Shown piece after piece: positions 4,056 through 33,239 of a stretch of DNA of 33,239 bases. How positions within the stretch are numbered: the first letter of the stretch is position 1; every line of letters begins with the position of its first letter. The position numbers were made by a program, and so were the translations under genes. A model generated the notes under the pieces. The model was not told the DNA's origin. It searched no databases and saw only the letters and a list, made by a program, of their open reading frames with translations. The stretch covers positions 1-33,239 of the forward strand of contig JBDRNU010000006.1 in NCBI GenBank assembly GCA_043810775.1, given 5' to 3'. This DNA comes from an archaeon. GTDB lineage: Archaea > Nanobdellota > Nanobdellia > Pacearchaeales > GW2011-AR1.

Positions 4056-4056
4056 T

Positions 4057-17183: not shown

Positions 17184-17657
17184 TTATCCTTTCTTTCCTT
17201 TCTTTCCTTTCTTTAATACACCAACAGATTTATTTTTTCTAAAATGAGCTCTTGTGCTCTGTCCTCTTACAGGCTGTCCAGTAGCATGTCTTAACCCTCT
17301 GTAACTTCTAATTTTCTTCAACCTCTTTATATCAAACTCTTTTCTCAATTCCAAGTCAGATGTGCTTAAGTGCAGGTTGCTTCCTTCATCGAGATCTTTT
17401 CTCCTGTTCAATAAATGAGCAGGCAGTTTTGGTTTTTTGATAAAATCAGAAATATTTTTTATATCCTCTGGGCTTAATTCATAAACTTTTTTGTTTTTAT
17501 CTATCTTTAGAGAGTTGCATAAGGCATTGGAAAAACTCCATGAAACACCCTTTATTTTAGTAAGCCCTGCGTAAATATTTTTATCACTTGGAATATCAGT
17601 GGAGAGGATTCTAATTAAGTGCACATCCTTTCTGTCTTTTTGTATGGGTTTTTGCAT
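17184..17657 (-). CDS. rps13: 30S ribosomal protein uS13
   Basis: LTKIKGV, LNRRKD, SYRGLRH--GQPVRGQST. Confidence 0.97.
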   Translation of the reverse strand: MQKPIQKDRKDVHLIRILSTDIPSDKNIYAGLTKIKGVSWSFSNALCNSLKIDKNKKVYELSPEDIKNISDFIKKPKLPAHLLNRRKDLDEGSNLHLSTSDLELRKEFDIKRLKKIRSYRGLRHATGQPVRGQSTRAHFRKNKSVGVLKKGKKGKKG

Positions 17658-18748: not shown

Positions 18749-19068
18749 TTTGTTTTGTTTTTGTGGACTTTATGCTCTATTTCATGAAGCAGTTTTTCCA
18801 TTACTTCAGCCAGTGCAGCAAATAAGTTATACTCTGAAGCTTCTGAACTGAATATCCTGTTACTTGTTTTTAAGCTGCCATTAACTTGGTGCAAAAAAGC
18901 CTTTCCTCGTCTTGACTTTTTCAGTTTCAGTTGCAAGTAATCATAAGTGCATTTTAAACTTATCTTATGATCATAGTTTCTTATAATATTGTCTACTATG
19001 GCTTTTTCTGCTGGTTCTAGGTCAAATCCAGACAGTAATAGCTGCCCCATAGTCTTTATGTTTGCCAT
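18745..19068 (-). CDS. Putative HPF/RaiA-like (ribosome hibernation fold) protein
   Basis: Beta-alpha-beta-beta-beta-alpha pattern ending FSSEASEYNLFAALAEVMEKLLHEI, resembling the HPF C-terminal helix; ATGA-coupled to L21e. Confidence 0.55.
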   Translation of the reverse strand: MANIKTMGQLLLSGFDLEPAEKAIVDNIIRNYDHKISLKCTYDYLQLKLKKSRRGKAFLHQVNGSLKTSNRIFSSEASEYNLFAALAEVMEKLLHEIEHKVHKNKTK

Positions 19069-19103
19069 ATTATCTATTATTTACAGAAAGAGTTTTTTGC
19101 TTT

Positions 19104-19358
19104 TTAAACCTTATTATTTGGGTTTTTGTCGTTTAAATTGCTTTTTGCCCGCCTAAAATCACTATCCAGACAGCTTCTTTTTAGTTCTTCATTTACAAGC
19201 CCCTGATCAAGATCCCCTTTTTCTCTAGCCCCATTCATATTGTCTATTATTGCCTTAAACATCCTATCTCCCCATACTCCTATTCCGCACCTGTCGCATA
19301 CATCTACTGCTCTGTCATCTTCAATTAGTCCCTTGCAATATACGCACCTCTTTGTCAT
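19104..19358 (-). CDS. Small zinc-finger protein (CxxC...CxxC)
   Basis: CVYC and CDRC pairs. Confidence 0.7.
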   Translation of the reverse strand: MTKRCVYCKGLIEDDRAVDVCDRCGIGVWGDRMFKAIIDNMNGAREKGDLDQGLVNEELKRSCLDSDFRRAKSNLNDKNPNNKV

Positions 19359-19447
19359 TTATTATTTATTTCTAGCTAGTTTTTAAATTTATCTGTGGTT
19401 AATTTGGATATAGAAATCTTTATATATTCTAAAGTTTGAATTTAGGC

Positions 19448-20338
19448 ATGCCAACTGAAGTTGGGGTGAAGTACAATGAACAAGAAGTTGATGCTATTGT
19501 AAATGCGTCTTCTGACCCTGAGTTAACTAAATTAGTTCTAGCCAAATTATCAAATGCTGGAAAGGATATTCCTCCTCTTCATGTTCTTGCAGAAAATTTA
19601 GGTATAGAGATAAACGAGTTAAGAGATATAGGTTTTTATCTGGATAGGAATAATATCATAAAACCTTCAATGCTTTTATCTGTAAATAATTTAAATAAAG
19701 AAGCCCAACTAGTTATTGCCTGCCCTGTAAGCATAAATTACTATTTTCAGTCTGACCTTCCTTTTGGTCCAGCTATTTCTTTTTATAAATCTCAACTTTC
19801 TCAAAAAGATTTAGTTAAGTTAATGACTAGTGTTTCTGATTCAGTGAAATTTAGGTATAAAAAAGGATTTACACTTTCAAGAGATTCACTAGATAAAATC
19901 AGAGAAGCAATGCATAGTGAAGTAGAATCCCTGCTAGAAAAACAAGCTGATATGTATGGGGCAGAAAAAGATTTTGGAAGTTTTGCCAATTTTCCTTCTT
20001 TTGTGAAAAAAGCTAACCCTCATTCAACTCTTGGGTTTCAAGATAAAGTTTATTTTGAACTTGAAGCAGAATTTACAACTGCTCAGGCTGCAGCTAATGA
20101 AGGCTTTCATGATGCAATTGGAAGTGTTCAGCTAAGCAGAGAGCATCATGTGTTTGATAGAGGGATATCTGAAATTGGTTATGCTGTTCGTGTTGATAAT
20201 AATTCAAAAAACAGAAAATTTTCTTTTCTTAATCTGCGCAGGTGTCCTGAAGCTAGTTATGGTAGTCATTCACTAATGAAAGAAACAGCAATGATAAATG
20301 AAGATTTAGTGAGCAGATTAGAAAATTCACTTAGTTAA
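19448..20338 (+). CDS. Hypothetical protein, possible N-terminal winged helix
   Basis: Long ORF; TATA-like element at ~19418-19426 favours ATG 19448; LAENLGI---ELR is HTH-like. Confidence 0.7.
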   Translation: MPTEVGVKYNEQEVDAIVNASSDPELTKLVLAKLSNAGKDIPPLHVLAENLGIEINELRDIGFYLDRNNIIKPSMLLSVNNLNKEAQLVIACPVSINYYFQSDLPFGPAISFYKSQLSQKDLVKLMTSVSDSVKFRYKKGFTLSRDSLDKIREAMHSEVESLLEKQADMYGAEKDFGSFANFPSFVKKANPHSTLGFQDKVYFELEAEFTTAQAAANEGFHDAIGSVQLSREHHVFDRGISEIGYAVRVDNNSKNRKFSFLNLRRCPEASYGSHSLMKETAMINEDLVSRLENSLS

Positions 20339-20357
20339 GTTAGATATTTTAGTTTTT

Positions 20358-20576
20358 TTATTCTGTAGAATGAGTTTTGTCTTTTTCAAAAGCCACTTCA
20401 ACTAAATCTACAAGTTTTCCAGAATCTCCATCACAAACTTCCCTTATTGCTTGTGCCAATAAATGAAAACCATAATAATCACCGCCTTCACCCCTTCCAT
20501 GTTCAGCTTGCATATAATCTTCCCACCCCCTTGATTTTTCTTCTGTCCATAGAGCTGATTTTCTTAATACCATCAT
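20358..20576 (-). CDS. Small hypothetical protein
   Basis: 72-aa ATG ORF with an upstream TATA-like element. Confidence 0.5.
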   Translation of the reverse strand: MMVLRKSALWTEEKSRGWEDYMQAEHGRGEGGDYYGFHLLAQAIREVCDGDSGKLVDLVEVAFEKDKTHSTE

Positions 20577-20650
20577 ATAATAAAATTTAAGAATTATTTA
20601 AATTTATCTAAGTTGTAAGGGCACTTTGTTCAAATTTTTCTTCTTCCATT

Positions 20651-20956
20651 TTAATTAAAAATTGAATCTTCAAATAGCTCAATATCTAAGCCCTCTTGCC
20701 TTAATCTTTCTAAATCAATCACCTCACTGCAAATAAAATACCAGTTGCCTCCAACACTCCATATCTGCTCTCGTATTTTGCTTCTTTCTTCAGGATTTCC
20801 ATTATCAACTTTTTCTGTAATTAAGTTAACAGCACTTCTATAACTTTGAAAATCTTCGACGCTGTTAACTACATATTTTGGATGTGGGCTTATAATTTCT
20901 CTAAATTGCTCTTCATCGCTTCTTGGGTCAGCTATATAACTTTCCATTTTATTCAT
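20651..20956 (-). CDS. Hypothetical protein
   Basis: 101-aa acidic ORF overlapping or abutting the permease stop. Confidence 0.6.
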   Translation of the reverse strand: MNKMESYIADPRSDEEQFREIISPHPKYVVNSVEDFQSYRSAVNLITEKVDNGNPEERSKIREQIWSVGGNWYFICSEVIDLERLRQEGLDIELFEDSIFN

Positions 20957-22172
20957 ACCTCAGCGCATCAACTGGCCTTAATTTACTTGCCTGCAATGCT
21001 GGCAGAAATCCAGAAGCACTTCCAATCACAAAAGCAAAAGCCAGGCTTCCTAAAACTAGCCATAAAGGATAGCTTACTTGAAGTAAGTTAGTGCCCAGCT
21101 GATTTATTGCAATATACTCAATTATCTGCCCTATTACTATCCCAAGAATAACCCCTATAATCCCTCCAATTAATCCCAAATATCCAGACTCAATTACAAA
21201 TATTTTCAAAATATCAGAATTTCTTGCTCCTACAGCCTTCATTGTGCCTATTTCCTTTGTCCTCTCAATAACACTGGTGTACATTGTGTTCATAATCCCT
21301 ATTGCTCCCACAACCAAGCTGATAGTGGCAATTCCTACTAAAAATCCAGTAATAATATTTAATATATCTCCAAAACTTCTCAAAATTTCTTCAGGAGTTA
21401 ATACTGAAAAATCTTTTGTTTTCTCAGTCAACCCCCTGTCTTTAATTAGTTTTTTTTCCACCTTTTCAGATATATCTTTAACATCTTCCCCAGGCTGAAT
21501 CTGCACAATAATCTCATCAACCCTGTCTCCAGCTTCTGGAAAAATTTCCTTAAAGCCCTCTAAAGGAATATAAATATTTCTGTCATCTTCAGAGTTTCCC
21601 ATGCTTTCCAAAATTCCAACAACCTTAAACTCTTTATTTTGAATCACTAGCTTATCTCCAGCTCCTACTGGCTTTGAAAAAAAATCTCCATACTTATAAT
21701 CATATCCTATCATAATATTATTTTTATCTCCCCCCCGTATTAGTCTTCCCTCTTCTGCTTTTATTGACATTGCTTCATAAATTGATTCATACACACTCAC
21801 CTTATCCATTGGTATTCCTAAAATCATTCTAAATCTTTGTTCATCGCCAAACTCAATTTTCCCATTTCCAATTGTTACATAAGAAACAGCTTTTACACCG
21901 CTGACTCTTTCTACACTATCCACATCCCTGATAGTTAGTTCAGCAGCTCCCCCGCTTCCTGGAGGTCCAAACTGCCCTGCAGCCATTATGAAAAATTTAT
22001 CACTTCCCAACTGCCTGAACTGTTCCTTTACAGCATTTTCAAGCCCAACCGACAAGCTTACCAGAACAAATATAATTGCAACTGACATTAAAATTCCAAC
22101 TATAGTTAGCCAGCTTCTTAGTCTTCTTCTCCTTGTATTCTTCAAAGCTAGTGTAAAATAATCTTTTATCAT
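20949..22172 (-). CDS. ABC transporter permease, MacB/FtsX (SalY) family
   Basis: LRSWLTIVGI, ERTKEIGTMKAVGAR, LRPVDALRYE. Confidence 0.93.
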   Translation of the reverse strand: MIKDYFTLALKNTRRRRLRSWLTIVGILMSVAIIFVLVSLSVGLENAVKEQFRQLGSDKFFIMAAGQFGPPGSGGAAELTIRDVDSVERVSGVKAVSYVTIGNGKIEFGDEQRFRMILGIPMDKVSVYESIYEAMSIKAEEGRLIRGGDKNNIMIGYDYKYGDFFSKPVGAGDKLVIQNKEFKVVGILESMGNSEDDRNIYIPLEGFKEIFPEAGDRVDEIIVQIQPGEDVKDISEKVEKKLIKDRGLTEKTKDFSVLTPEEILRSFGDILNIITGFLVGIATISLVVGAIGIMNTMYTSVIERTKEIGTMKAVGARNSDILKIFVIESGYLGLIGGIIGVILGIVIGQIIEYIAINQLGTNLLQVSYPLWLVLGSLAFAFVIGSASGFLPALQASKLRPVDALRYE

Positions 22173-22678
22173 TTTCTGGAATTATCCGGATAATAAGTCA
22201 TTTTTTTAAGTTTATCAAGATCATTAAAATCTAATTCAGTAAAACAAGAATCAATATTGTTTGCTTTAACATATTCTGCAAGGTCTTTTATTACATTAGC
22301 CATTGATCTAAGTGTATCTCTTTCATAATCTTTTTTTATTGAATGTGAATGAAGGCGCACTACTGTTTTATATCTTCTTATTCTTAAATAATGATTATAT
22401 ATTTCATCAGGCATATTCAAAAGTTCTTTCATTACTTCAGGTTCGCCAGGATTTTCATTTTTTTCAATTTGAATGGTTATATTCCCTTCATGCCAAACTA
22501 AATCATGATTTTCTCCATGTATATGAGGTTCATATTTGCCTGTTTTTTCTAAATTTTCTATTAATCTTTTATAATGAATTTCCATATATATCTCATAATT
22601 GCTCCATAAATTGTATTTTTCTCTTAAGTCTTCATCAGGGCAGTTTTCAAGAGCTTCTAAAAATTCTTCTAAATTCAT
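22169..22678 (-). CDS. Hypothetical protein inserted between the two permeases
   Basis: ATG 22678 lies just after the permease stop; its own stop overlaps the next ATG (ATGA). Confidence 0.65.
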   Translation of the reverse strand: MNLEEFLEALENCPDEDLREKYNLWSNYEIYMEIHYKRLIENLEKTGKYEPHIHGENHDLVWHEGNITIQIEKNENPGEPEVMKELLNMPDEIYNHYLRIRRYKTVVRLHSHSIKKDYERDTLRSMANVIKDLAEYVKANNIDSCFTELDFNDLDKLKKMTYYPDNSRK

Positions 22679-22679
22679 C

Positions 22680-23897
22680 TCATCCTCGCAGCGCATCAAC
22701 TGGCCTTAGTTTACTTGCTTGTAAAGCTGGAAGTAATCCAGAAAGTATTCCAACTAAAAATGAAAAAACCACGGAGCCAATTACCAGTGGCCAGGAAATT
22801 TCAAAGTCGAATATATTATTTCCAAAAAAAGCATTTGCCCCACTTGATGCACTGTAAGCCATTCCCAGCCCCAGAATAACCCCTATAATCCCTCCAATTA
22901 ATCCCAGCAATCCAGACTCAATCAAGAAAACAAAAAGAATATCAGAATTCCTAGCTCCTACAGCCTTCATTGTGCCTATTTCCTTTGTCCTTTCAAGAAC
23001 ACCAGTGTACATTGTATTGGCAATTCCTATTCCCCCGACAATCAGAGAAATAACTGCTATCCCAATTACAATTATATTAACTATATTCAAAATAGTATCT
23101 ACTGCCTGTAATCCTTCTACAGGAGTCTGCACTTTAAAGTCTTCTTCACCCACTTTTTCATCCCTATCTCTTCGCATCTCTTTTTTAATATTTTCTGCAA
23201 CCTTTTCAATTTCATCCTGATTTTCTACCTGAATAGCAATTAAATCAATTTCATCATCTATATCAAGCAAGTCCTTCATATCACTTTCAAGTATCACCAT
23301 TGCAGAATTAATAGTAAAAGTAGAGCTTCTTTGCATAATTCCAATAACTTCAAATTCCCTGCCTTGAATCAGGATTTTTGAGCCAACACCAAGCCTTTTT
23401 CCAAAATCTATATTACTTGAAAAATCATCTCCAAGAAGCACTTTTCCTTTATCTTGCTCTCCAAGTTTCTTGCCTTGGGCAGTATCAACATTCATCTCTT
23501 TATAGATAAAATCAATCTTATCCCTGTCTTCTGGCATACTTACTATGTAACTAAATCTTAAATTTTTATTATACTCTACCTTCACAGCTCTCAGTAACCT
23601 GGGTACAATTTGCTTTATTCCAGAAACTTTTTCAATTACATTAACATCATGTTCATTAAGCTTTCTTACAGCCGTGCTTCCTGGAGGTGAGAAGCCAGTA
23701 TCTGCCCCAGTTACTGTTAAAATATCTGTAGATAAAGATTGAAACTGTCCTGTTACCGCTGTTCTCAAGCCTTGCCCTAATGTTATCAGCGAGACTACAG
23801 CAGCAATCCCAATGAATATGCCAATCATAGTAAGCCAGCTTCTTAGTCTCCTTCTTCTCAGGCTTTTTAATGATAATAAGAAGTAGTCAGCTAGCAT
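22680..23897 (-). CDS. ABC transporter permease, MacB/FtsX (SalY) family
   Basis: LRSWLTMIGIFIG, ERTKEIGTMKAVGAR, LRPVDALRG. Confidence 0.93.
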   Translation of the reverse strand: MLADYFLLSLKSLRRRRLRSWLTMIGIFIGIAAVVSLITLGQGLRTAVTGQFQSLSTDILTVTGADTGFSPPGSTAVRKLNEHDVNVIEKVSGIKQIVPRLLRAVKVEYNKNLRFSYIVSMPEDRDKIDFIYKEMNVDTAQGKKLGEQDKGKVLLGDDFSSNIDFGKRLGVGSKILIQGREFEVIGIMQRSSTFTINSAMVILESDMKDLLDIDDEIDLIAIQVENQDEIEKVAENIKKEMRRDRDEKVGEEDFKVQTPVEGLQAVDTILNIVNIIVIGIAVISLIVGGIGIANTMYTGVLERTKEIGTMKAVGARNSDILFVFLIESGLLGLIGGIIGVILGLGMAYSASSGANAFFGNNIFDFEISWPLVIGSVVFSFLVGILSGLLPALQASKLRPVDALRG

Positions 23898-23901
23898 GGG
23901 T

Positions 23902-24777
23902 CTATCTCCCTGTTTGTTTTAACTTATTCCTTTTTTTCCTAGCTTTAAATATTCTATAAACAATATAAACTAAAATTAGTAGCACTGCAATACTCACATA
24001 AGCCCCAGTGTTACTCTTAGGTATTAACCCAAGCTGTATTGCTTCTTGCTGAGTATATGCAGTTAAAATTATATTTTCATCCTGAAACTGATTTTTATTG
24101 CTAGAGTCTTTATACTCTATAGTTATTGGAAGGCTTATTGTTTTGGCAGCACTAGAATCTATAAATATGCTAAAATCTGCTGACTGGAAATCATCACTAT
24201 CAATATCCCCTATATATGCTGAGCTTGAGCCAATAACTCTTATTCCTGGAGCATTATTAATGTTTACAATTAAAAATTTTGCATCTCCTAATCCTGAATT
24301 CACTATTTTTATAGTTAGCTTGTTTTCCTGTCCTTTAATTAAGCTGTCTTCATATTCAACTCTTAATTCTGGTAGTGAGGTAATTGTCAAGCTTATTAAG
24401 CTTGAATCTTGTTTTTCAATATCATTTAAAGTATAACCTATTATTACAGGAATCTTATATACTCCTGCTTTTGCATCTGGCAGTGCTTCTAAATTGAAAC
24501 TTATACTTTTTTCATTATTATCATTTATCTCATCAAATGTTCTGTCAACTCCTGAGCTTGATGGGGCAAATGGCAAGTCTCTTAAATCTAGCGAAACTCT
24601 TACGTTTTGCACTGCAGTATCAAAATTATTTTCTATATTCATACTTATCTTAACTTGCTCTCCTGGTTTAACTTCACTAGGAGCTGATTGAATATTTTTT
24701 AAGTCAAGAGCAGTTATGCCAGTCATTCCAGCTACTAATAATAAAGCAAAAATTGTAATTATAATTTGATTTTTCAT
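23902..24777 (-). CDS. COG1361-type (S-layer-domain/CARDB-like) surface protein
   Basis: Signal peptide, two Ig-like beta repeats (P-EVKPGE...; IVNSGLGDAK...YIGDIDSDD), C-terminal TM helix plus basic tail; lies within the ABC operon. Confidence 0.75.
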   Translation of the reverse strand: MKNQIIITIFALLLVAGMTGITALDLKNIQSAPSEVKPGEQVKISMNIENNFDTAVQNVRVSLDLRDLPFAPSSSGVDRTFDEINDNNEKSISFNLEALPDAKAGVYKIPVIIGYTLNDIEKQDSSLISLTITSLPELRVEYEDSLIKGQENKLTIKIVNSGLGDAKFLIVNINNAPGIRVIGSSSAYIGDIDSDDFQSADFSIFIDSSAAKTISLPITIEYKDSSNKNQFQDENIILTAYTQQEAIQLGLIPKSNTGAYVSIAVLLILVYIVYRIFKARKKRNKLKQTGR

Positions 24778-24841
24778 TTTATATACTCAGAATAAGGCCT
24801 CTGATATGCCACCACCTCTCACTCTTGCAAATTTTTAAACT

Positions 24842-25528
24842 TTATAAGTTTTTCCTTTTATCAACCTCTCCATCCCTCAGTCTTATTATCTTATTAGCTT
24901 GTTTGGCTTTTTCCATGTCATGAGTAACCATTATAATAGTCTTTCCCTGTTTGTTTAGCTTTTTTAAGATATCCATTACATCATTTCCAGTTTTAGTGTC
25001 AAGATTTCCAGTTGGTTCATCAGCCAGTATTACTTCAGGGTCATTTGCCAGAGCTCTTGCAATTGCCACTCTCTGCCGTTCTCCTCCTGATAGTTCGCCG
25101 GGCACATGAAAAAGCCTGTGCCCTAATCCTAACTCTCCCAAGAGTCTTTCAGCTTTTTCTTCCCTCTCATCCTGGGAAATTCCCTGAAATATCATTGGAA
25201 GCATTACATTTTCCAGTGCATTTAAAGTAGGTATTAAGTTAAATGTCTGGAATATAAATCCTATCTTTTTCCCTCTTATCTGAGCTAAGTCAGACTCACT
25301 TAAATGCTCTATATCTATATTATCAAGAAAAATATCCCCTTCACTAGCAAGGTCTAGTGCTCCCACTAGATTCATCATTGTGCTTTTACCAGAGCCCGAA
25401 GGTCCCACAATTGCTATAAAATCACCTTTTTTAATCTCAAGGTTTACTTCACATATAGCTTTTATTGTCTCTTCACCCATCTCATAATACTTGCATACTT
25501 TCTTAAGCTGAATTATATTTTCTGCCAT
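24842..25528 (-). CDS. ABC transporter ATP-binding protein, LolD/MacB (SalX) family
   Basis: [33 protein letters not shown]. Confidence 0.96.
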   Translation of the reverse strand: MAENIIQLKKVCKYYEMGEETIKAICEVNLEIKKGDFIAIVGPSGSGKSTMMNLVGALDLASEGDIFLDNIDIEHLSESDLAQIRGKKIGFIFQTFNLIPTLNALENVMLPMIFQGISQDEREEKAERLLGELGLGHRLFHVPGELSGGERQRVAIARALANDPEVILADEPTGNLDTKTGNDVMDILKKLNKQGKTIIMVTHDMEKAKQANKIIRLRDGEVDKRKNL

Positions 25529-25572
25529 TTTAATAATCTTTAGATGATAGTAGTTACCCTTATAAATTTAGG

Positions 25573-26439
25573 TTAGTCTCTTCTTCTCTCTGCATTTTCA
25601 TAAGCTCTCCAAGCTTTAATATTTTTTGCGTCAGGTAAGGACCTATACATTGCAATGGCCTGCCTCCCACTAATTATTGGAGCTCCAACTCTCCCATACT
25701 TAATTGATTCTATTCTTCTTCCAGAATTTAATAAAGAACAATATTCTATTCTTGTTAATCCAAATTCTTCTCTCCATCTTTCAAGCAGTTCTTTTCCTGC
25801 TTCTAAATAAAACATTTGCCTTGAATCACTTAATCTTCCTTGTTCTTCTAATTCATCTGCCTGTCTCTGAGGTATATCTAAAAAATCATTTAGATTTTTT
25901 TTACTAAAATCAGGCATTTTGCCAAAAGGAAAAATCTTAATTCTTTCAGCAGAAGCTTCTCCTAAATAAGCATTTCTTACTATTTCTTCTGTTAATTTTT
26001 TAAGATCATATCCTACTGCTATTAAAGTCGCATCACAATCATCAATCATCATCCATCTTTTAGACAAGGCAATATAATTATCTTTATCAGTTATTAACAA
26101 TTCCTCTTCAACTTCTTTTCTAACAGCTTCCCATCTATCCACAGCTTCAGCTCTCTCTTCATACTCTTCAACTGGAATTGTGTATATTTCAGGAATCATC
26201 TTATCTGCTATTTTTCTTGTTTCATTATCTCTGTTTTGATATATTCCTATAAATTTATCAAAGCATATCAGTTCGCTTCCAAAAGTTCCCATAGCCCATT
26301 TCATATCTCTTGTCATTCCAAATTCATCAATATAACCTGTTTCATCTAAACTAGTAGGTTCTTTCATCCTTATTCCCCTCATATTCCCTTTTGCATACAA
26401 GAAAGGACTTTCAATTTCTTTAACTTTTGAGTGTTTCAT
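25573..26439 (-). CDS. Hypothetical protein, paralog of 9266-10132
   Basis: Shared motifs FIGIY, IAVGY, ERIKIF---MPDF, FGLTRIEY--L; a TATA-like element at ~26465-26473 favours ATG 26439. Confidence 0.75.
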   Translation of the reverse strand: MKHSKVKEIESPFLYAKGNMRGIRMKEPTSLDETGYIDEFGMTRDMKWAMGTFGSELICFDKFIGIYQNRDNETRKIADKMIPEIYTIPVEEYEERAEAVDRWEAVRKEVEEELLITDKDNYIALSKRWMMIDDCDATLIAVGYDLKKLTEEIVRNAYLGEASAERIKIFPFGKMPDFSKKNLNDFLDIPQRQADELEEQGRLSDSRQMFYLEAGKELLERWREEFGLTRIEYCSLLNSGRRIESIKYGRVGAPIISGRQAIAMYRSLPDAKNIKAWRAYENAERRRD

Positions 26440-26490
26440 CTTAATTAATTGTCTTTGATTGAACATTTAAATAATTTTTCATTTGAATTA

Positions 26491-27435
26491 TTAATCATAT
26501 TCTTCTAATAGTATGCTATTCCTAGCTCTCCTTAATTTTAATAAAGCATTGTTTTGTATTTGCCTTGTTCTTTCTCTTGTAACTCCAATTACCTCTCCAA
26601 CTGCTTCTAAGCTATATGACTTTCCTTCAAAACCAAATCTCATCCGAATAATTATCTCCTCTCTTTCATCCAAAATATCTTTTAAGAATCTTCCAACTTT
26701 TTCAATCCTAAAATTATAATCTGCAATTTCATCTGCCCCCACCACTCTCTTGTCTTCAACCAAATCTCCTAAAGTTCCCCCATCTTCTGGGCTTAAATCA
26801 GAATCAAGTGAGCTGGTAACTCTTGCCATTTTTTCTAACTTTTCAACTTTTTCATAATCTAAACCAGTTTCTTCTGCAATTTCCTCCACTGTAGGCGCTC
26901 TCCCGCAATTTTTAAAAAATCTTGATTTAAAAGCATCTACTTTTTTTGTTAATTCGTATGCATGAACTGGAATTCTTATTTCAGCACCCTGATTAGCAAT
27001 ATATCTTGTTATTGATTGTTTAATCCAGTTACTAGCGTGAGTTGAAAACTTGAATCCTCTTTTATAATCAAACTTATCTACAGCTTTCATCAGCCCAATA
27101 CTCCCTTCATCTACAAGATCTAGTAAAGGAATTCCGTGATTTGCATATTTATTAGCTATGCTTACAACTAATCTCAGGTTAGATTTAATAAAAATATTTC
27201 TTGCCTCTTCCTTCCCACTAATTTTTGCCCCATAACTTAAATGAGCAACTCTTTTTTCTCCTTCTAAAATTTGGGCAAGAGCCACTTCATCTTCTTTTTT
27301 TAATAAAGGAGTTCTTCCTATATTTCTAAGGTAAGCTTTTACTCCATCTTCAACATAAATATCTCTATCTTTCTTAGTCCCTTTTTCATAAGCCTTATCT
27401 TCATCTTCTAGCAATTCTGTTTCCCTTAATCCCAT
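26491..27435 (-). CDS. Bacterial-type sigma-70 factor (RpoD/RpoS-like, regions 1.2, 2, 3 and 4)
   Basis: DGVKAYLRNIGRTPLL (1.2); NLRLVVSIANKY, DL-DEG-IGLMKAVDKFDYKRGFKFST (2); IRIPVH, PTVEEIA (3); SLEAVG---GVTRERTRQI (4.2). Confidence 0.92.
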   Translation of the reverse strand: MGLRETELLEDEDKAYEKGTKKDRDIYVEDGVKAYLRNIGRTPLLKKEDEVALAQILEGEKRVAHLSYGAKISGKEEARNIFIKSNLRLVVSIANKYANHGIPLLDLVDEGSIGLMKAVDKFDYKRGFKFSTHASNWIKQSITRYIANQGAEIRIPVHAYELTKKVDAFKSRFFKNCGRAPTVEEIAEETGLDYEKVEKLEKMARVTSSLDSDLSPEDGGTLGDLVEDKRVVGADEIADYNFRIEKVGRFLKDILDEREEIIIRMRFGFEGKSYSLEAVGEVIGVTRERTRQIQNNALLKLRRARNSILLEEYD

Positions 27436-27511
27436 TCTTTTTCCAGAAATTATCTATTTAAATATTTAATCATTGCATAAGATTTAAAAACCTCCTCTAA
27501 TTGCTATTTTC
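27436..27511. promoter_or_regulatory. Divergent archaeal TATA-type promoters for the sigma-like gene and rpoN
   Basis: TTTAAATA on - (~27455-27462) and TTTAAAAA on + (27483-27490), each about 25 nt from an ATG. Confidence 0.55.
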
Positions 27512-27709
27512 ATGATAATCCCAATGAGATGCTTTTCATGTGGCAAGCCAATTGCTCACCTATGGGGAGAATACAAAAAGCGAGTAGCTTCAGGAGAAAA
27601 TCCAGGAAAAGTCCTAGATGAGCTTGGACTGGAAAGATACTGTTGCAGGGCTGTTTTCTTAGGACAGGTAGATTTAATTGAAGAAGTGAGTAAGTTTAAA
27701 AAATTCTGA
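27512..27709 (+). CDS. rpoN: Archaeal RNA polymerase subunit N (Rpo10)
   Basis: MIIPMRCFSCGK...LDELGLERYCCR. Confidence 0.97.
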   Translation: MIIPMRCFSCGKPIAHLWGEYKKRVASGENPGKVLDELGLERYCCRAVFLGQVDLIEEVSKFKKF

Positions 27710-27796
27710 TTATTTTAGTGGCTTAAGAAGTTTTGATTTCTTCAATATCTTCCCTATTATACAAATATTCTTAAATATGTAAGCAAATCATTTTTT

Positions 27797-28099
27797 ATGA
27801 GATATTCAGCTAGTTATAAAATAATATCAAAAAATGATCCAAGGTTAGACGGACAAGATATACTTATAGATGAAATAGTTCTAAATAAAAAATTTCTTAG
27901 AAGTAAATTTGTGTTAGAATCTGGGTTACTGGGTGGTGGGGAGGATGAGCAAAGGGCAGAGTATGATGGGATGGAATTTCGTTCAATAGGAGAAGCAACA
28001 CAATATCTCCTAAATTATGCAATAAGAAGAAACTTGGAGTTAGAAGTCACTTATCCATTTTTAAAAATATCAACGCCCTTTCTTAGGTCTAAGAAATAG
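27797..28099 (+). CDS. Hypothetical protein
   Basis: 100-aa ATG ORF with an upstream TATA-like element. Confidence 0.55.
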   Translation: MRYSASYKIISKNDPRLDGQDILIDEIVLNKKFLRSKFVLESGLLGGGEDEQRAEYDGMEFRSIGEATQYLLNYAIRRNLELEVTYPFLKISTPFLRSKK

Positions 28100-28111
28100 C
28101 TATTTGAGCTT

Positions 28112-28672
28112 CTATTTAGTTTTGATGTTCTTAATATCTTCTAATAATTTATTAAATTTAGTATATCTTGAATTTTTATTAAAATGTCCTGCTCCTCTTA
28201 TTATATTTATGCTAACTCCAACTTTATCTGCTATTTCTTGACTTTTTTTCAAAGGTACATAAGGGTCATTATCCGAACTGTATAATATAAATTTTCCACA
28301 GTTCTTTTTTATTTTATCCCATTCAAATTTCTTGTTTACAAAGGTTTTATTTATTTTATCAAAATCTTCATTACCAAGCCAGCTAACAAATCCTGCCACG
28401 AAAAATGAGGCCTTAATTCTTTTATCTAATTTTTCAAGAACAGTCAATATAAAAGCAGGGCCTAAGCTATGCCCTATAATTATTGAACTTTCATCTAAAT
28501 ATTGCTTATAACTTTCAAGCACTTTCATCCAGTTATTCAGTGATTGATTTTTTGGGGTGGGAAATTTTGGGATAAATACTTTGCATCCTATTTTTTCCAG
28601 CTCTTTTTTCAGCCAGGGAAACCAGTTTTCTTCAGGATTTCCATAAGAGCCATGTATCATTATCACATTCAT
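28112..28672 (-). CDS. RBBP9/YdeN family alpha/beta hydrolase
   Basis: IHG------NWFPWL, GHSLG, S-NDPYV, GAGHF; start 28672 is ATGA-coupled. Confidence 0.92.
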   Translation of the reverse strand: MNVIMIHGSYGNPEENWFPWLKKELEKIGCKVFIPKFPTPKNQSLNNWMKVLESYKQYLDESSIIIGHSLGPAFILTVLEKLDKRIKASFFVAGFVSWLGNEDFDKINKTFVNKKFEWDKIKKNCGKFILYSSDNDPYVPLKKSQEIADKVGVSINIIRGAGHFNKNSRYTKFNKLLEDIKNIKTK

Positions 28673-28911
28673 TTGATTTTCCACCTGGAAATATATCCGC
28701 AATTTCTGCATGCAACTCTTTTTATACCTTTTTTTATGCTTTTTACTTTTAATTTAGGTGAGAAACATTTTTTGCAGAACTTTTTTCTCAAGCTTCCTAG
28801 CTTAATATTTGAGTGCATTGCATTTCTTTTAATTTTCTTAAAATCTTTTTCAGTTCTCGCCTTGTTAATTAAATCAATAACTTCTTTTTTTGATAGCTTT
28901 TCTTTTTTCAT
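28669..28911 (-). CDS. rnp4: Ribonuclease P protein component 4 (Rpp21), short form
   Basis: A---NIKL---RKKFCKKC...RVACRNCGYISR zinc ribbon. Confidence 0.8.
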   Translation of the reverse strand: MKKEKLSKKEVIDLINKARTEKDFKKIKRNAMHSNIKLGSLRKKFCKKCFSPKLKVKSIKKGIKRVACRNCGYISRWKIK

Positions 28912-28948
28912 ATACTATTTAAGAAATAATAATATAAAAAAGTATAGA

Positions 28949-29064
28949 TGAAGACAGCTTCAAGCCTTCCCCTCTTGTGGGAGAGTACAAGAATGAACGT
29001 AGGAAGCTTAACTTCTGGGTTCGGAATGAGACCAGGTGTTTCCAACCTACTATGGCCGTCTTCA
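28949..29064 (-). rRNA. rrf: 5S rRNA
   Basis: Terminal helix UGAAGACGGC/GCUGUCUUCA, GGCCAUAG, GAAACACC, CUCAUUCCGAACCCAGAAGUUAAGC. Confidence 0.93.
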
Positions 29065-29153
29065 AAATTAATCTAATTCTAGCCTATTTAAGCTTTTGCA
29101 TAATAAGGTTTAATCACAATAATGTTTATATTTTATAACTAAAATAATAATCT

Positions 29154-29741
29154 ATGAATCAAGTTTATTATGCAACTACTAATCTTGGTAAGTTCATCAC
29201 ATTGCAGAAAGATCTCAAGGAACATAATATTTCTTTAATAAGAGCTGACTTAAAGCTTCCTGAGCTTCAAAGTGAAGATCTGAAAGTAATTTCTGGAGAA
29301 AAAGTAAGATTTGCAATTGGCAAACTAAAAAAACCCTGCATTGCCCAAGACTCAGCTCTTTTTATTTATTCTTTAGAAGGATTTCCCAATACTTATGTTA
29401 AATATGCCTTAGAGACAATAAAAATTGAAGGAATCCTTAAATTACTAGAGGGAAAGCCAAGGGGGTGTGAATTTAGAAACTGTCTGGCCTATCTTGATTC
29501 ATCTCTTTCCAATCCAATGTTTTTTGAATCAGAGTCTAAAGGAATTCTTATCCCAGAAAGAAGAGGAAAAATAAGAGGAGAATCTTGGTCTAATCTTGAC
29601 CTCATATTTATTCCAGAATCATATGAAAAAACTGTTGCCGAACTTGATGATGAAGAATTCAAAGAGTGGAGAGCTTATCGCTCTAAATTTTCTTATTCTA
29701 CTAAATTTGCAAGCTGGTTTTCTCAAGAAAGGAAATTATAA
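29154..29741 (+). CDS. Ham1/ITPase family non-canonical purine NTP pyrophosphatase (divergent)
   Basis: ATTNLGK, PELQ, QDSALFI--LEGFP--YVK, D-IFIP--KT-AEL. Confidence 0.85.
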   Translation: MNQVYYATTNLGKFITLQKDLKEHNISLIRADLKLPELQSEDLKVISGEKVRFAIGKLKKPCIAQDSALFIYSLEGFPNTYVKYALETIKIEGILKLLEGKPRGCEFRNCLAYLDSSLSNPMFFESESKGILIPERRGKIRGESWSNLDLIFIPESYEKTVAELDDEEFKEWRAYRSKFSYSTKFASWFSQERKL

Positions 29742-29766
29742 ATATCCTTATTGCTTTATTATAACA

Positions 29767-29853
29767 GGCAGGAGTAATCAGTGTAGCAGTCAGACACTTC
29801 GGTGTCTTCTGTACAGAGTCTCGTCAGAGATTCCAGCACTGACTCATTCTGCC
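29767..29853 (+). ncRNA. Unassigned structured small RNA candidate
   Basis: Closing stem GGCAGGA/TTCTGCC, TCAGTG/CACTGA, hairpins AGACAC-TTCG-GTGTCT and GAGTCTC-GTCA-GAGATTC; TATA at 29737-29743 and a T-rich tail. Confidence 0.6.
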
Positions 29854-29916
29854 CATCTTTCTTGCTTTGGATAAATTTTAATAACCTCTATTTCTTTTAC
29901 TTCAAGGGAAAGTTTG

Positions 29917-29944
29917 ATAAAGAAAACCGTTAGGTTGTCTTTAT
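29917..29944 (+). repeat. tRNA-leader hairpin ATAAAGAAAACC-GTTA-GGTTGTCTTTAT
   Basis: 11 of 12 bp paired; core AACCGTTAGGT recurs at 33014-33024. Confidence 0.7.
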
Positions 29945-30028
29945 GCGGGAGTGCCGGAGCGGTCAAACGGGATAGACTCAAGATCTATTGGCTTAGTGCC
30001 TGCAAAGGTTCAAATCCTTTCTCCCGCA
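29945..30028 (+). tRNA. tRNA-Leu(CAA)
   Basis: GCGGGAG/CTCCCGC, anticodon arm ATAGA-CTCAAGA-TCTAT, long variable arm, TTCAAAT, A73. Confidence 0.96.
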
Positions 30029-30076
30029 TTCCTTGATAGGAATGCGCCCAATCCCTATCCTCATCTAGGAGTTAAA

Positions 30077-30448
30077 ATGAAAATCACAAAACAGCTTAAA
30101 AAACTAATTGAAGAAAATGCTTTAGCTCTTGCTTCAGTAGATGAAAAAGGAAATCCCCACAATATTGCCCTCGGATATGTTAAGGTAATTGAAGGTAATA
30201 AAATTTTAATTTCAGTTAATTATATTGTATTTACTTTAAAATATATTAAGAAAAATCCAAATGTCTCTCTTGTTGTATGGAATAAAAACTGGAAGAAAAA
30301 TTGTATTGGTTACGAGCTACTTGGAAAGGCAAAATTTTATTCAAAAGGGAAATACTCTGAAATAATTAAGAAACTTCCAATAAATAAAGGAGAGCCTTGT
30401 AGGGGAGCAATTATTGTCTCTATAAATAAAATTAAGAATTTGAGTTAA
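30077..30448 (+). CDS. Pyridoxamine 5'-phosphate oxidase-like FMN-binding protein
   Basis: LASVDEKGNPH, I--NPNVSL, GYEL-GKA; start at ATG 30077 after AGGAG because the upstream ORF extension is tRNA sequence. Confidence 0.85.
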   Translation: MKITKQLKKLIEENALALASVDEKGNPHNIALGYVKVIEGNKILISVNYIVFTLKYIKKNPNVSLVVWNKNWKKNCIGYELLGKAKFYSKGKYSEIIKKLPINKGEPCRGAIIVSINKIKNLS

Positions 30449-30449
30449 A

Positions 30450-30968
30450 ATGTTGGCAAGAATAAAAAATCAAACCAGAAGCCAGAGAATAAAAAGAAAA
30501 GCTAGAAGAAATCTTTCTAGCAAGTTTTCAAGAGAAAAAGATAATTATGTAGTTGATACTTCAGCGATTATCCACAGATTTCTGCCAGGACTTATAAAAA
30601 AAGGGCTAAGCGGAAGAATAATTATTCCCAATGCAGTTATGGCTGAGCTAGAAAGCCAGGCCAATAAGGGATTTGAATGGGGGTTTATCGGTCTAGATGA
30701 AGTTGTAAATCTTCATAATCTAAAAGAAAAATATAAAATAACTATATTTTTTGAAGGAATACGCCCTCAGGAAAACCATATAAAATATGCAAAATCCGGC
30801 GAGATAGATGCTTTAATCAGGGAAATTGCCCGCGAGAATAATGCAACTCTAATAACTTCTGACCTAGTTCAGGCAAAATCAGCTCAGGCTTATAATATTC
30901 CTGTAATTTTTCTTCGCCCTAAACTTGAAAAGCCAAAGAAAAGAAGATTCTGGCCATTTGGAAAATGA
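30450..30968 (+). CDS. PIN-domain protein resembling the N-terminal domain of the archaeal PINA ATPase
   Basis: VVDTSAII, ELESQANKG, GEIDALIR, LITSD-VQA. Confidence 0.85.
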   Translation: MLARIKNQTRSQRIKRKARRNLSSKFSREKDNYVVDTSAIIHRFLPGLIKKGLSGRIIIPNAVMAELESQANKGFEWGFIGLDEVVNLHNLKEKYKITIFFEGIRPQENHIKYAKSGEIDALIREIARENNATLITSDLVQAKSAQAYNIPVIFLRPKLEKPKKRRFWPFGK

Positions 30969-31206
30969 TTAAAAAGAAAACTAAAGTTATTTTTGAAGAT
31001 GGAAATAAAATTAAAGAAGATGATTTAATTGGAGGAATGCCTCTTTCTAAAGGTGAAATTGTCCATATTCATAAAGGTAGCAAGATTATAGATTATAAGG
31101 TAGCAAGATTATAGATTATAAGGTAGTTGACAAGATTATAGACTTTTACTTAGAGGGCAATGATCAAATAGTTAATATCACTTATGTTTTAAGAAAGTTA
31201 AAATAA
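30965..31206 (+). pseudogene. Small gene frameshifted by a 23-bp tandem duplication
   Basis: ATGA-coupled ORF stops at 31114; deleting one repeat unit gives a 72-aa ORF ending at TAA 31206. Confidence 0.65.
31074..31126. repeat. Tandem repeat, 23-bp unit AAGGTAGCAAGATTATAGATTAT, 2.3 copies
   Basis: Exact copies at 31074-31096 and 31097-31119. Confidence 0.9.
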
Positions 31207-31210
31207 TAAT

Positions 31211-31238
31211 GCGCCCGTAGCTCAGCTTGGATAGAGCA
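31211..31238 (+). tRNA. 5' fragment (acceptor strand and D-arm) of an interrupted tRNA, Arg-like
   Basis: GCGCCCG-TA-GCTC-AGCTTGGATA-GAGC-A; pairs with CGGGCGC at 32429-32435. Confidence 0.8.
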
Positions 31239-31270
31239 AAATTTAAATACTTTTTAATGTTAAAATTTAG

Positions 31271-32284
31271 ATGAGGGTTTTAATTTCTAAAGATTCAAAA
31301 TTAGAATTATTCAATTTCCTTAAAGAGAAGAACAATGTTTTTACAAAAAAAGAGCTTTCTAAAAAATTAAAAATATCTTCAAGCACTCTGGATAAGTGGT
31401 TTTATAATGATTATAGGTATATTCCTTTAAATATTGTTCCTGAAGAACTTAAATTAAAAATATTAGATAAAAAGTCAGATAATTGGGGAAAAATTAAAGG
31501 TGGTAAGAAAACTTATCAAATATTAATGAAAAAATATGGTATAAATGAAATCAAAAAAAGACAATCAAAAGGTGGCAAAAATAGTTTGGCAATAAGAAAT
31601 CAAAAATTAAGAGAAAATCTTAAAATTGATATTAATAATCCTTTATTTTTAGAATTTTACGGCGCTTTGTTAGGTGATGGGTGGTTGAGTTCATTATCAT
31701 ATAATTACAAATCAAAAAAAAATTTATGGTGGGTGGGAATAAGTGGTCATTCTAAGCTAGATAAAGAATATTTAATGTTTATTAAAAAAATTGCTGAAAA
31801 ATTATTTAATAGAAAAATCATCATAAAGTATAAAAAAAATTCCCAAGGAATGGAGATACTTTTTTCCCATAAACACTTAATTCTTTTTTTTAATAAAGAA
31901 TTAGGATTTCCAGTAGGCAAGAAATTTAATTTAAAAATTAACAAAAAAATTCCCAAGGAGTGGGATAGGATAAAATATGTAATAAGGGGAATATTCGATA
32001 CAGATGGATGCTTATATTTTGATAAAACTCCAGTAGGAAGACCTTATCCTTGTTTATCTATTCAGATGAAAGCTCCAGTTTTAATAAAGCAATTATATTA
32101 TCTTCTTACTAATAATAATTTTAAAGTAACTTATAAAATTTGTAAGAATAGTAAGGAAGGGCAAAGTAGAATAACCTTAAAAGGAAGTAAACAATTAAAT
32201 AAGTGGATGAACGAGATAGGGTCAAGTAACTCAAAACATTTTTTAAAGTATAAGAATTGGTTAAATCAAGTCCCCGTAGCGTAA
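31271..32284 (+). CDS. LAGLIDADG homing endonuclease with N-terminal HTH
   Basis: Two motifs FYGALLGDG and IRGIFDTDG; KELSKKLKISSSTLDKW HTH; very K/N-rich. Confidence 0.88.
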   Translation: MRVLISKDSKLELFNFLKEKNNVFTKKELSKKLKISSSTLDKWFYNDYRYIPLNIVPEELKLKILDKKSDNWGKIKGGKKTYQILMKKYGINEIKKRQSKGGKNSLAIRNQKLRENLKIDINNPLFLEFYGALLGDGWLSSLSYNYKSKKNLWWVGISGHSKLDKEYLMFIKKIAEKLFNRKIIIKYKKNSQGMEILFSHKHLILFFNKELGFPVGKKFNLKINKKIPKEWDRIKYVIRGIFDTDGCLYFDKTPVGRPYPCLSIQMKAPVLIKQLYYLLTNNNFKVTYKICKNSKEGQSRITLKGSKQLNKWMNEIGSSNSKHFLKYKNWLNQVPVA

Positions 32285-32343
32285 CTGGATAGCGCGACAG
32301 CTTCCTAAGCTGTAGGTTGCAGGTTCAAATCCTGCCGGGGACG
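32270..32343 (+). tRNA. tRNA-Arg(CCT)
   Basis: GTCCCCG/CGGGGAC, D-loop GGATA, ACAGC-TTCCTAA-GCTGT, GCAGG-TTCAAAT-CCTGC, G73. Confidence 0.95.
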
Positions 32344-32345
32344 TT

Positions 32346-32436
32346 TTCCTAACCTTGGTGTCGTAGGTTCAAATACTTAAACTCGTGAGAGTTTGAGTCC
32401 CAGAAAATCTTTGATTTTTTGAGCCTATCGGGCGCA
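32346..32436 (+). tRNA. 3' fragment of the interrupted tRNA, with a 49-nt insertion at the T-loop (32375-32423)
   Basis: TTCCTAA-CCTTG-GTGTC-GTAGG-TTCAAAT-[insert]-CCTAT-CGGGCGC-A. Confidence 0.8.
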
Positions 32437-32551
32437 TTTTGAAATTATAGCAAAATATATAAACTTATAATTCTTCTTTGAATTATCGAAAAAAAAGAAA
32501 GTAAGAATTGATTAGTTAATTCTGACAAATAAAATTATGAAGGAGGTTAAA

Positions 32552-32941
32552 ATGAATAAAAAAATTGAAGGTGTAGTGGCTATCATAGAAAAAGATGGCA
32601 AATATCTTCTTGGCTTAGAATCTAAAGATAGCCCTATTAAAGGTAAATGGCGACTTCTTGGAGGAAAGCTTGAAAAAGGCGAAACTCCCGAACAAGCACT
32701 GCATAGGGAGCTGATGGAAGAAGCTTCAATAGAAATTAAGGTAGTTAAATATCTATTTGATATTAAAGCAGAGCATTCTGACATTCTTATCTATGTATTT
32801 TTAGCAAAATATCTCAAAGGCAATCTAAAACCTAGGATTGAAGAGCATGAATCAATTAAGTGGTTTTCATTAGAAGAGGTTAAGAGTTTAAATCTAGCTA
32901 AAACTACTAAAGAAATTATTGAAAGATATCTTGGTAGGTAA
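32552..32941 (+). CDS. Nudix hydrolase (MutT-like)
   Basis: GGKLEKGETPEQALHRELMEE Nudix box; GGAGG before ATG 32552. Confidence 0.9.
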   Translation: MNKKIEGVVAIIEKDGKYLLGLESKDSPIKGKWRLLGGKLEKGETPEQALHRELMEEASIEIKVVKYLFDIKAEHSDILIYVFLAKYLKGNLKPRIEEHESIKWFSLEEVKSLNLAKTTKEIIERYLGR

Positions 32942-33007
32942 GCAAAAACTTTAAAACACTAGAAAATTTATACTACCATCACTCTTGAAGCATACTCAAG
33001 GGAGATA

Positions 33008-33031
33008 CAAAAGAACCGTTAGGTGCTTTTG
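33008..33031 (+). repeat. tRNA-leader hairpin CAAAAGAACC-GTTA-GGTGCTTTTG
   Basis: 9 of 10 bp paired; same core as 29917-29944. Confidence 0.7.
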
Positions 33032-33032
33032 A

Positions 33033-33104
33033 GCGCTGGTAGTATAATGGCTAGTATCATTGCCTTCCAAGCAATTGATCCGGGTTCGAGCCCCGGCCGG
33101 CGCA
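33033..33104 (+). tRNA. tRNA-Gly(TCC)
   Basis: GCGCTGG/CCGGCGC, ATTGC-CTTCCAA-GCAAT, CCGGG-TTCGAGC-CCCGG, A73. Confidence 0.96.
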
Positions 33105-33158
33105 TTTAATTTTATTTCCAAATAGTTAAATTAGATTTGATTTTAAAAGAAGAAAAAA

Positions 33159-33239
33159 TTATACAATCTGCTCAAGGAAACTTTCGCTGTCAAGCTCTAT
33201 TGATGTTTCTCCGCTGTAAGCATTACTTCTAACATAGCT
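33159..33239 (-). CDS. C-terminal end of a gene running off the window
   Basis: Open frame SYVRSNAYSGETSIELDSESFLEQIV* followed by a T-rich tract. Confidence 0.45.
   Translation of the reverse strand, partial: SYVRSNAYSGETSIELDSESFLEQIV

Follow-up and report, generated by a model that had tools for sequence, protein, structure and literature searches.

A bacterial-type sigma-70 family gene native to an archaeal chromosome, with substitutions at the promoter-melting residues

Sigma factors on the one hand, and TBP and TFB on the other, are textbook markers of bacterial versus archaeal/eukaryotic transcription initiation. Sigma-70 genes have been reported in DPANN archaea, especially in Woesearchaeota, by Castelle et al. 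2021 (PMC8204110), who excluded mis-binning; in the passage of that paper concerned with these genes, no anti-sigma factors were found and the mechanism is called unclear. A section of a more recent study (Nat Commun 2025, PMC12647753) describes rpoS-like genes carried by viruses and prophages of DPANN archaea. The literature has already flagged the puzzle that this poses: many genomes of one archaeal phylum retain a constrained and often multi-copy sigma family although they have no bacterial core enzyme for it to serve. Here we describe one such gene, located on a stretch of 33,239 nucleotides (the window) that is an entire 33-kb contig (JBDRNU010000006.1) of a Pacearchaeales draft genome (GCA_043810775.1, referred to here as G000) of a small, symbiont-type archaeon. 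The window serves as a test case: it combines certain archaeal residence, a defined promoter/operon, an orthologue in a second species of the same genus (the congener G001) and a natural double substitution of melting residues.

The sigma gene has an ATG start codon and a frame that is uninterrupted over 314 codons. Pfam places four domains in order along the protein: Sigma70_r1_2 at residues 30-55 (E 2.1e-08; 34.4 bits, cut-off 22), Sigma70_r2 at 83-150 (E 5e-17; 61.9 bits, cut-off 24), Sigma70_r3 at 161-236 (E 2.6e-15; 56.7 bits, cut-off 25.3) and Sigma70_r4 at 254-302 (E 2.7e-15; 56.1 bits, cut-off 24.1). Regions 2 and 4, in this order, both exceed the Pfam gathering scores, as expected of a sigma-70 family member. 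Region 1.1 (PF03979) is not among these four matches, region 1.2 beginning at residue 30, and is present in many bacterial matches to the protein. No NCBIfam equivalog cut-off is reached among the best 25 of the 51 sigma models matched: the top score, to the RpoD model NF004208, is 281.2 bits (cut-off 555), so that the protein does not class as an RpoD/SigA equivalog, and the RpoS model gives 224 bits (cut-off 379). The top relative of solved structure is SigA (7ckq_F, E 2e-63). E. coli sigma70 (4jk1_X) is matched at 4e-55, with query residues 75-310 on chain residues 372-607, and BLASTP alignment to E. coli K-12 RpoD shows 43% identity over 240 residues. The best database matches are 45-50% identical, the nearest being bacterial primary sigma factors, including those of Patescibacteria. 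Judged by these matches, the gene is a member of the bacterial sigma-70 family, nearest to primary and group-2 sigma factors and lacking region 1.1.

The remainder of the contig is archaeal: the window also encodes S13, S4, S11, Rpo3 (with a ferredoxin insert), L18e, L13, S9 and rpoN, and the closest named Rpo3 matches, the only two of the 120 listed that bear an organism name, are a metagenome-assembled genome labelled 'archaeon' (78%) and a Candidatus Pacearchaeota archaeon (63%). The first-pass annotation, a model's description of the sequence, had recognized a bacterial-type sigma-70 with regions 1.2-4.2 intact in an archaeal chromosome, and both the Pfam domains and these contig genes agree with it. 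G000 is a 995-kb genome in 26 contigs, with a completeness of 80.1% and a contamination of 0.33%. It has a single Rpb1_1 match, an unsplit archaeal Rpo1 of 1160 residues, and encodes TBP and TFB. A bacterial alpha C-terminal domain (RNA_pol_A_CTD) was not found in this 80.1% complete genome, and a bacterial core RNA polymerase (beta' and alpha in the same genome) was not detected, in keeping with the earlier statement that archaea have no sigma-dependent core. Most archaea split Rpo1 into A' and A''. An unsplit open frame of 1133-1203 residues (G000:C9:31735-35217, L037; L120-L145) is read in 24 of 28 matching genomes; in the others, contig ends or a stop interrupt it.

The sigma gene is native to the archaeal chromosome, inherited, and found at the same place in a second species. 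On an 18-kb contig of G001 that also carries Rpo3, the order is rpoN (-), an open reading frame (ORF) of 443 residues (ORF443), sigma (+), an ATP-binding cassette (ABC) gene, CARDB and MacB; this is identical to the order in G000 except that each genome has an orphan gene next to sigma, on opposite sides of it and unrelated to each other. Because rpoN, sigma and the exporter genes stand in the same order in G001, the locus is not a chimera, and the gene was already present in the ancestor of the genus. The guanine plus cytosine (GC) content of the gene is 0.332, against 0.329 for the genome, and 0.19 at third codon positions (GC3). Two exact contigs from groundwater metagenomes, overlapping each other, reach from the 5' end of sigma through the spacer into rpoN (X2, 27269-27517; X1, 27423-27680); they come from four DNA runs and are short, low-depth pieces, with no record spanning the whole sigma gene and parts of it uncovered. 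The first-pass annotation had asked for contiguity to be confirmed with reads; a chimeric assembly, one of its refuting conditions, is contradicted by the G001 synteny, the genome-like GC, the native spacing of the TATA box (below) and these contigs at the sigma/rpoN junction.

Comparison of the two species also reveals constraint. The G000 and G001 sigma proteins are 48% identical, with a proportion of nonsynonymous differences (pN) of 0.347, a synonymous counterpart (pS) of 0.663, which is saturated, and a nonsynonymous distance (dN) of 0.465. Other genes compared between the two genomes have dN values of 0.27 (ABC ATPase), 0.39 (MacB), 0.71 (CARDB), 0.086 (Rpo1) and 0.068 (rpoN), so that sigma falls between ABC and CARDB. 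We aligned both proteins with 32 bacterial rows, picked from the 119 non-self matches listed in the protein search. Of the 101 columns that are at least 90% conserved in these rows, the window sigma keeps 81 and the G001 sigma keeps 82; the two agree with each other at 67 of these 101 columns versus 49 of the 187 others. Read in this way, the alignment establishes that the gene has been constrained since the species split at the same positions as bacterial sigma factors. Such retention, together with the G001 orthologue, fits the term 'domesticated' that had been applied to it.

The substitutions that set this protein apart lie in region 2. According to a passage in PMC4496690, Y430 of E. coli sigma70 stacks on the flipped -11A and W433 forms a wedge at -12/-11; the region 2.2 core-binding sites are given as D403, Q406, E407 and N409 in part of a preprint (bioRxiv 10.1101/2020.09.07.285775). 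Residue n of the window protein corresponds to E. coli RpoD n+297 in the BLASTP alignment. The region 2.3 melting aromatics of primary and group-2 sigma factors, Y430 and W433, are replaced by H133 and N136, respectively. Within the core-binding set, D403 and E407 are kept, Q406 is replaced by D109 and N409 by S112. In the 32 bacterial rows, Q406, Y430 and W433 are Q, Y and W without exception (32/32). Many of the region 2 changes in the window sigma are radical (K392N, R397H, Q406D, Y430H, W433N, A442Y, R448A and T449E), unlike those in the G001 sigma, which are conservative. Residues W434, Q437, T440, R441, H455 and E458 are retained, as is the -35 helix (R584, E585, R586, R588 and Q589; VTRERTRQ compared to VTRERIRQ in E. 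coli), and the region 3.2 finger motif is intact. BLASTP alignment to RpoD and inspection of the codons therefore reproduce the three substitutions first described (Y430H, W433N and Q406D) and the preserved TRERxRQ helix.

These substitutions are not shared by related archaeal proteins. The G001 sigma has Y at Y430, W at W433 and E at Q406. For a broader comparison, we took from 58 loci the 50 ORFs that reached E <= 1e-10, setting weaker ones aside; removal of three identical duplicates left 47 other archaeal copies. Y430 is Y in 46 of these 47, W433 is W in 34 and W434 is W in 37. At the core-binding positions, the E. coli residue occurs in 41 copies for D403, 37 for E407, 33 for N409 and 25 for Q406 (where 11 copies have S and 3 have E), and the five region 4.2 residues are retained in 37-43. 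The window sigma is the sole one of the 48 copies with both H and N: as far as these copies represent the family, the Y430H/W433N pair is private to G000 and is no general trait of DPANN sigma factors. The rewired melting residues pointed out in the first-pass annotation are peculiar to this genome, given the 46 of 47 copies that keep the tyrosine and the G001 protein that keeps both Y and W.

The family itself is widespread. Among 301 sampled phylum members (300 of which, all but G000, are at least 90% complete), Sigma70_r2 exceeds the Pfam cut-off in 129 (128 of 300 without G303), with up to seven matches per genome; some of the positive genomes are single contigs. None of four control archaea has a match. 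At the order level, a sigma match occurs in 25 of 61 genomes, counting G000. Among 27 sigma ORFs from 23 relatives, region 4 is present in 25, region 2 in 18, region 3 in nine and region 1.2 in five, and an XRE-type helix-turn-helix (HTH_3) in three. Proteins of approximately 200 residues with an N-terminal XRE-type helix-turn-helix and C-terminal sigma-70 region 4 are encoded at L016:1102-1752 (+) in G032 and L019:1492-2103 (-) in G059. A 426-residue protein at L018:952-2232 (+) in G040 (C12) joins sigma-70 region 4 to RNA_pol_A_CTD (E 2.3e-20), two modules with which the bacterial holoenzyme binds DNA, and has no core-binding part. G000 also has a second sigma-like ORF (G000:C14:14077-14208, L164), a 115-residue frame with region 4 at 29.7 bits, which is over the Pfam cut-off.

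The closest relatives of the window sigma are only 44-50% identical in a word-indexed search of 5.8 billion proteins and in searches of genome, viral and metagenome contigs, and a two-sequence profile run against 1.84 billion representatives returned nothing closer than 44-50%. Of the profile matches, P0243-P0245, which score above the bulk, and the two that lead the bulk, P0246 and P0247, have a duplicated region 2 and are probable assembly artefacts. In a quick tree, all 14 archaeal rows are on long branches (2.3-10, compared to a median of 0.56) and unresolved, the window branch being approximately four times the median. A single archaeal clade is not rejected by the approximately unbiased test (p 0.438), a result that does not show one either.

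The sigma promoter appears to be an ordinary one for this organism. In a scan for the octamer TTTAWATA with at most one mismatch upstream of 903 crude gene starts of G000, matches form a sharp peak centred 25.5 nt before the ATG (159/903 genes, with a background of approximately nine per position), with a second spacing class at -23.5 (40/903 genes). Given this sharp TATA-to-ATG spacing, the organism is, on the evidence of the scan, largely leaderless. The sigma box, TTTAAATA, is a perfect match and lies at the second-class spacing of -23.5. The box at leaderless spacing and the 76-bp divergent arrangement with rpoN had both been pointed out in the first-pass annotation, and the genome-wide scan upholds them. 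A TATA-like octamer is absent within 60 nt upstream of all seven co-directional genes downstream of sigma (7/7). As these genes have no such box, sigma is probably the first gene of an operon that spans 27435 to 20651 and includes an orphan gene and an ABC/CARDB/MacB exporter set.

We tentatively favour a reading to which we give somewhat less than an even chance: that the window gene encodes a domesticated sigma-family regulator, the first gene of an ABC/MacB exporter operon, which would read -35/-12-type duplex DNA and not nucleate melting. An ancestor of the DPANN (Pacearchaeota-like) lineage would have acquired a bacterial sigma-70 gene, followed by vertical inheritance. The gene would be transcribed from an ordinary archaeal leaderless TATA promoter, and its product would act as a sequence-specific DNA-binding regulator via the region 4.2 helix-turn-helix and region 2.4/3.0 duplex contacts. 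Because the aromatic pair that nucleates -10 melting is gone along with two of the four region 2.2 core contacts, the G000 protein is presumably no canonical melting sigma. Basal initiation would be left to TBP and TFB, and regulation may be local to the sigma gene's own exporter operon. Loss of region 1.1 may relieve the block on promoter binding by free sigma70. Relatives in which region 4 stands by itself or is joined to a further DNA-binding domain would fit a free DNA-binding use.

Several points weigh against a melting-free regulator. The tyrosine at Y430 is among the best-kept of 20 tabulated sites in the other archaeal copies, and the family-wide retention of Y430, W433, D403 and E407 suggests that the archaeal family uses single-strand capture and a coiled-coil partner. 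The G000 copy may be an outlier that is losing function. Region 2 holds 13 of the 20 departures from conserved columns, compared to 48 of the 101 columns themselves, which is no significant concentration (Fisher p 0.13). There is a single close orthologue (in G001), so that nothing shows H and N themselves to be selected, and saturation of the synonymous sites means that dN/dS is only bounded. Sigma70-type promoter-like sites are not enriched in window positions 19000-33239 (53, compared to 57.6 +/- 7.7 in shuffles). Finally, the abstract of PMC11217687 states that free sigma70 does not bind promoters, binding being seen only within the holoenzyme.

The first alternative, which we consider unlikely without dismissing it, is that the family is functional and that the G000 gene is a relaxed copy, drifting since it lost its role, in which the H, N, D and S changes represent early decay instead of rewiring. 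The unique combination of H and N among the 48 copies would be expected of such a copy, as would the radical region 2 changes where those of G001 are conservative. The pN/pS of sigma (0.52) is higher than that of ABC, MacB, rpoN and Rpo1, and the searches yielded no closer relative to show the changes kept. Points against a decaying gene are a frame intact over all its codons, retention of bacterial-consensus positions equal to that in G001 (81 and 82 of 101), a perfect TATA box at native spacing and a lead operon position, and the intact region 4.2 and region 3.2 finger motif.

A second alternative, hybrid initiation, is improbable in our estimation. Here region 2.2 of the sigma protein, and of the DPANN family with it, would dock on the coiled coil in the clamp of archaeal Rpo1, which is homologous to the clamp helices of beta'; beside TBP/TFB, the protein would serve as an accessory promoter-specificity or melting factor. 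This reading is favoured by the conservation of the region 2.2 surface and melting aromatics across these copies in genomes without a visible bacterial core, and by the spread of a multi-copy family through the phylum (129/301 genomes, up to seven matches each). The archaeal coiled coil also aligns with E. coli beta' 233-373 without gaps, at 37% identity over 142 aligned residues. However, beta' residues R275, E295 and A302, which we take to be critical for sigma70 binding, correspond to A227, L247 and H254 in archaeal Rpo1. The coiled coil is moreover invariant across 27 relatives with or without sigma, so that no co-adaptation is visible, and the G000 copy itself lacks Y430, W433, Q406 and N409. 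Prediction of a complex between sigma residues 25-165 and Rpo1 residues 1-340 gave a score of 0.00, below the mark of 0.32; it was run with no controls and counts neither way.

Archaeal TFE uses the clamp coiled-coil site, and its presence in 287 of the 301 phylum genomes (13 of 13 in the same family) also argues against hybrid initiation. TFE was not found in G000, a genome that is 80% complete. The idea that sigma replaces TFE was rejected: of the 14 TFE-less genomes, six (including G000) are sigma-positive, approximately the overall share. A variant to which we assign a still smaller chance is that DPANN sigma factors are hybrid-initiation parts with bacterial -10/-35 reading and strand capture, of which the G000 H/N copy would be a melting-dead repressor or competitor. 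On this variant, strand capture would account for the tyrosine being retained by 46 of the 47 other archaeal copies.

The first-pass annotation had also proposed an effector or decoy role against the RNA polymerase or anti-sigma factors of a partner bacterium, which now seems very unlikely. Most bacterial core- and DNA-contact positions are retained and the nearest sequence relatives are bacterial primary sigmas, including those of Patescibacteria, although both points bear on the idea indirectly. Against this, the N-terminus is acidic and hydrophilic, unlike a signal peptide (by eye, with no predictor), no secretion-system or bacterial-interaction genes are seen beside sigma, and the gene belongs to a housekeeping-type exporter operon. 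The changes at two of four core-binding residues and both melting residues would furthermore weaken competition for a bacterial core. An assembly or binning artefact, in which a bacterial fragment was joined to the archaeal contig, is barely conceivable: nothing was found for it beyond the draft state of a 26-contig, 80.1% complete genome, and it is contradicted by the same gene order in an independent congener, genome-like GC and GC3, native TATA spacing, metagenome contigs overlapping the sigma/rpoN junction exactly, 0.33% contamination and Sigma70_r2 in single-contig genomes of the phylum.

Coordinates of the sigma gene, its substituted codons and the surrounding features in the window
Feature	Coordinates	Strand	Basis
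Sigma-70 family gene, 314 residues, regions 1.2/2/3/4, without region 1.1	26491..27435	-	ORF call, Pfam, NCBIfam, BLASTP
Codon CAC = H133, at E. coli sigma70 Y430	27037..27039	-	Codon by eye, BLASTP, alignment
Codon AAC = N136, at E. coli W433	27028..27030	-	Codon by eye, BLASTP, alignment
Codon GAT = D109, at E. coli Q406, region 2.2	27109..27111	-	Codon by eye, BLASTP
Divergent sigma/rpoN intergenic region, 76 bp, with both TATA-like boxes	27436..27511	.	Sequence
TTTAAATA, archaeal TATA-like box, centre -23.5 from sigma ATG	27455..27462	-	Genome-wide octamer scan
TTTAAAAA, TATA-like box, centre -25.5 from rpoN ATG	27483..27490	+	Octamer scan
rpoN (archaeal RNA polymerase subunit N/Rpo10)	27512..27709	+	Pfam RNA_pol_N 3.6e-28; NCBIfam 100.6 bits vs 79
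Orphan gene, 297 residues, following sigma after 24 bp, without its own TATA-like box	25573..26466	-	ORF list, TATA scan
ABC ATPase	24842-25528	-	Co-directional with sigma
CARDB-domain protein	23902-24777	-	Co-directional with sigma
MacB/FtsX permeases	22680-23897 and 20949-22172	-	Co-directional with sigma
Small ORFs	22169-22699 and 20651-20956	-	Co-directional with sigma

The orphan gene that follows sigma has no match in Pfam, NCBIfam, PHROGs or PADLOC and no homologue among 5.8 billion proteins. Structure searches were likewise negative: ESM Atlas scores do not exceed 0.82, with an Atlas model predicted local distance difference test (pLDDT) value of 0.34, and an AlphaFold2 model from a four-row alignment (mean pLDDT 55.5) has no Foldseek match in the PDB at E <= 0.001. 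The orphan is missing beside the G001 sigma and is unrelated to ORF443. Its weak relatives in G038 and G018 sit on contigs other than those with the sigma matches of these genomes. An anti-sigma-like partner role for the orphan was considered and rejected, as it matches neither a known family nor a known fold and is not conserved beside sigma. The orphan belongs to a lineage-restricted family (window 25573-26466 and 9266-10132, L033:1294-2013 and L034:1387-2061; 224-297 residues, 22-27% identical) that shares a G-L-T/S-R-x-E stretch, and the 25573-26466 member is the only one that adjoins sigma. The G001 orphan, ORF443, located between rpoN and sigma (L038:1229-2560 (-), G001:C31), has only a weak match to a Cox-like excisionase/repressor (PHROGs, E 0.0081). 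Lineage-specific genes seem to be gained and lost in the sequence flanking sigma.

The link between sigma and ABC/MacB genes is not general in archaea: it was seen at only two of 58 loci (in G001 and G144), for which flanks of approximately 1.5 kb were available. The window contig carries a second MacB/FtsX permease gene set at 603-4752, besides that at 20651-25528. Archaeal rpoN usually stands directly after S9; in the window it is approximately 13 kb from the S13-S4-S11-Rpo3-L18e-L13-S9 cluster (14127-17657), which is on the opposite strand. At 31271-32343, a 337-residue ORF with LAGLIDADG_3 (E 3.5e-05) runs at its end into the first part of a tRNA-Arg(CCT) gene (32270-32343); the neighbourhood also has genes for tRNA-Leu, tRNA-Gly and a PIN-domain protein.

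Sigma-70 in DPANN is already reported and is common in the phylum. Since the class had been described before and the unusual residues occur in a single genome, the discovery is incremental. One of the known systems with which the window gene can be compared is MzaA of the MZA anti-phage system, whose C-terminal sigma part it matches (NCBIfam 247 bits, PADLOC 167 bits). The NCBIfam score is, however, far below the cut-off of 800, and the long N-terminal part is missing, the match covering model positions 468-713 of 726. A scan of eight neighbouring ORFs, of which seven are downstream and one lies past rpoN, showed no Mza partner protein, and the gene does not class as MzaA. Like the rpoS-like genes of DPANN viruses, as these are presented in the relevant section of PMC12647753, the window gene is a divergent, DPANN-linked sigma homologue. 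Unlike them, it has rpoN on one side and an exporter operon on the other, and viral genes are absent there; in PHROGs it matches the generic sigma family only, and viral contigs contain nothing closer than 45%.

The likeness to RpoD, SigA and RpoS lies in the order of regions 1.2, 2, 3 and 4 and in the retention of the -35 helix, of Q437/T440 and H455/E458, and of the motif in region 3.2. The window sigma differs from these proteins in having neither region 1.1 nor the non-conserved insert and in the Y430H, W433N, Q406D and N409S substitutions. Its host, with no visible bacterial core, uses TBP/TFB, and the gene is placed behind an archaeal leaderless promoter. A further described counterpart is the DPANN sigma-70 'fam00359' of Castelle et al. 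2021 (PMC8204110), whose passage on this family does not extend to analysis at the residue level. Like the genes reported there, the window gene is of the sigma-70 class, by its regions 2 and 4, and resides on an archaeal contig, and it differs from the other archaeal copies collected here in its H/N pair.

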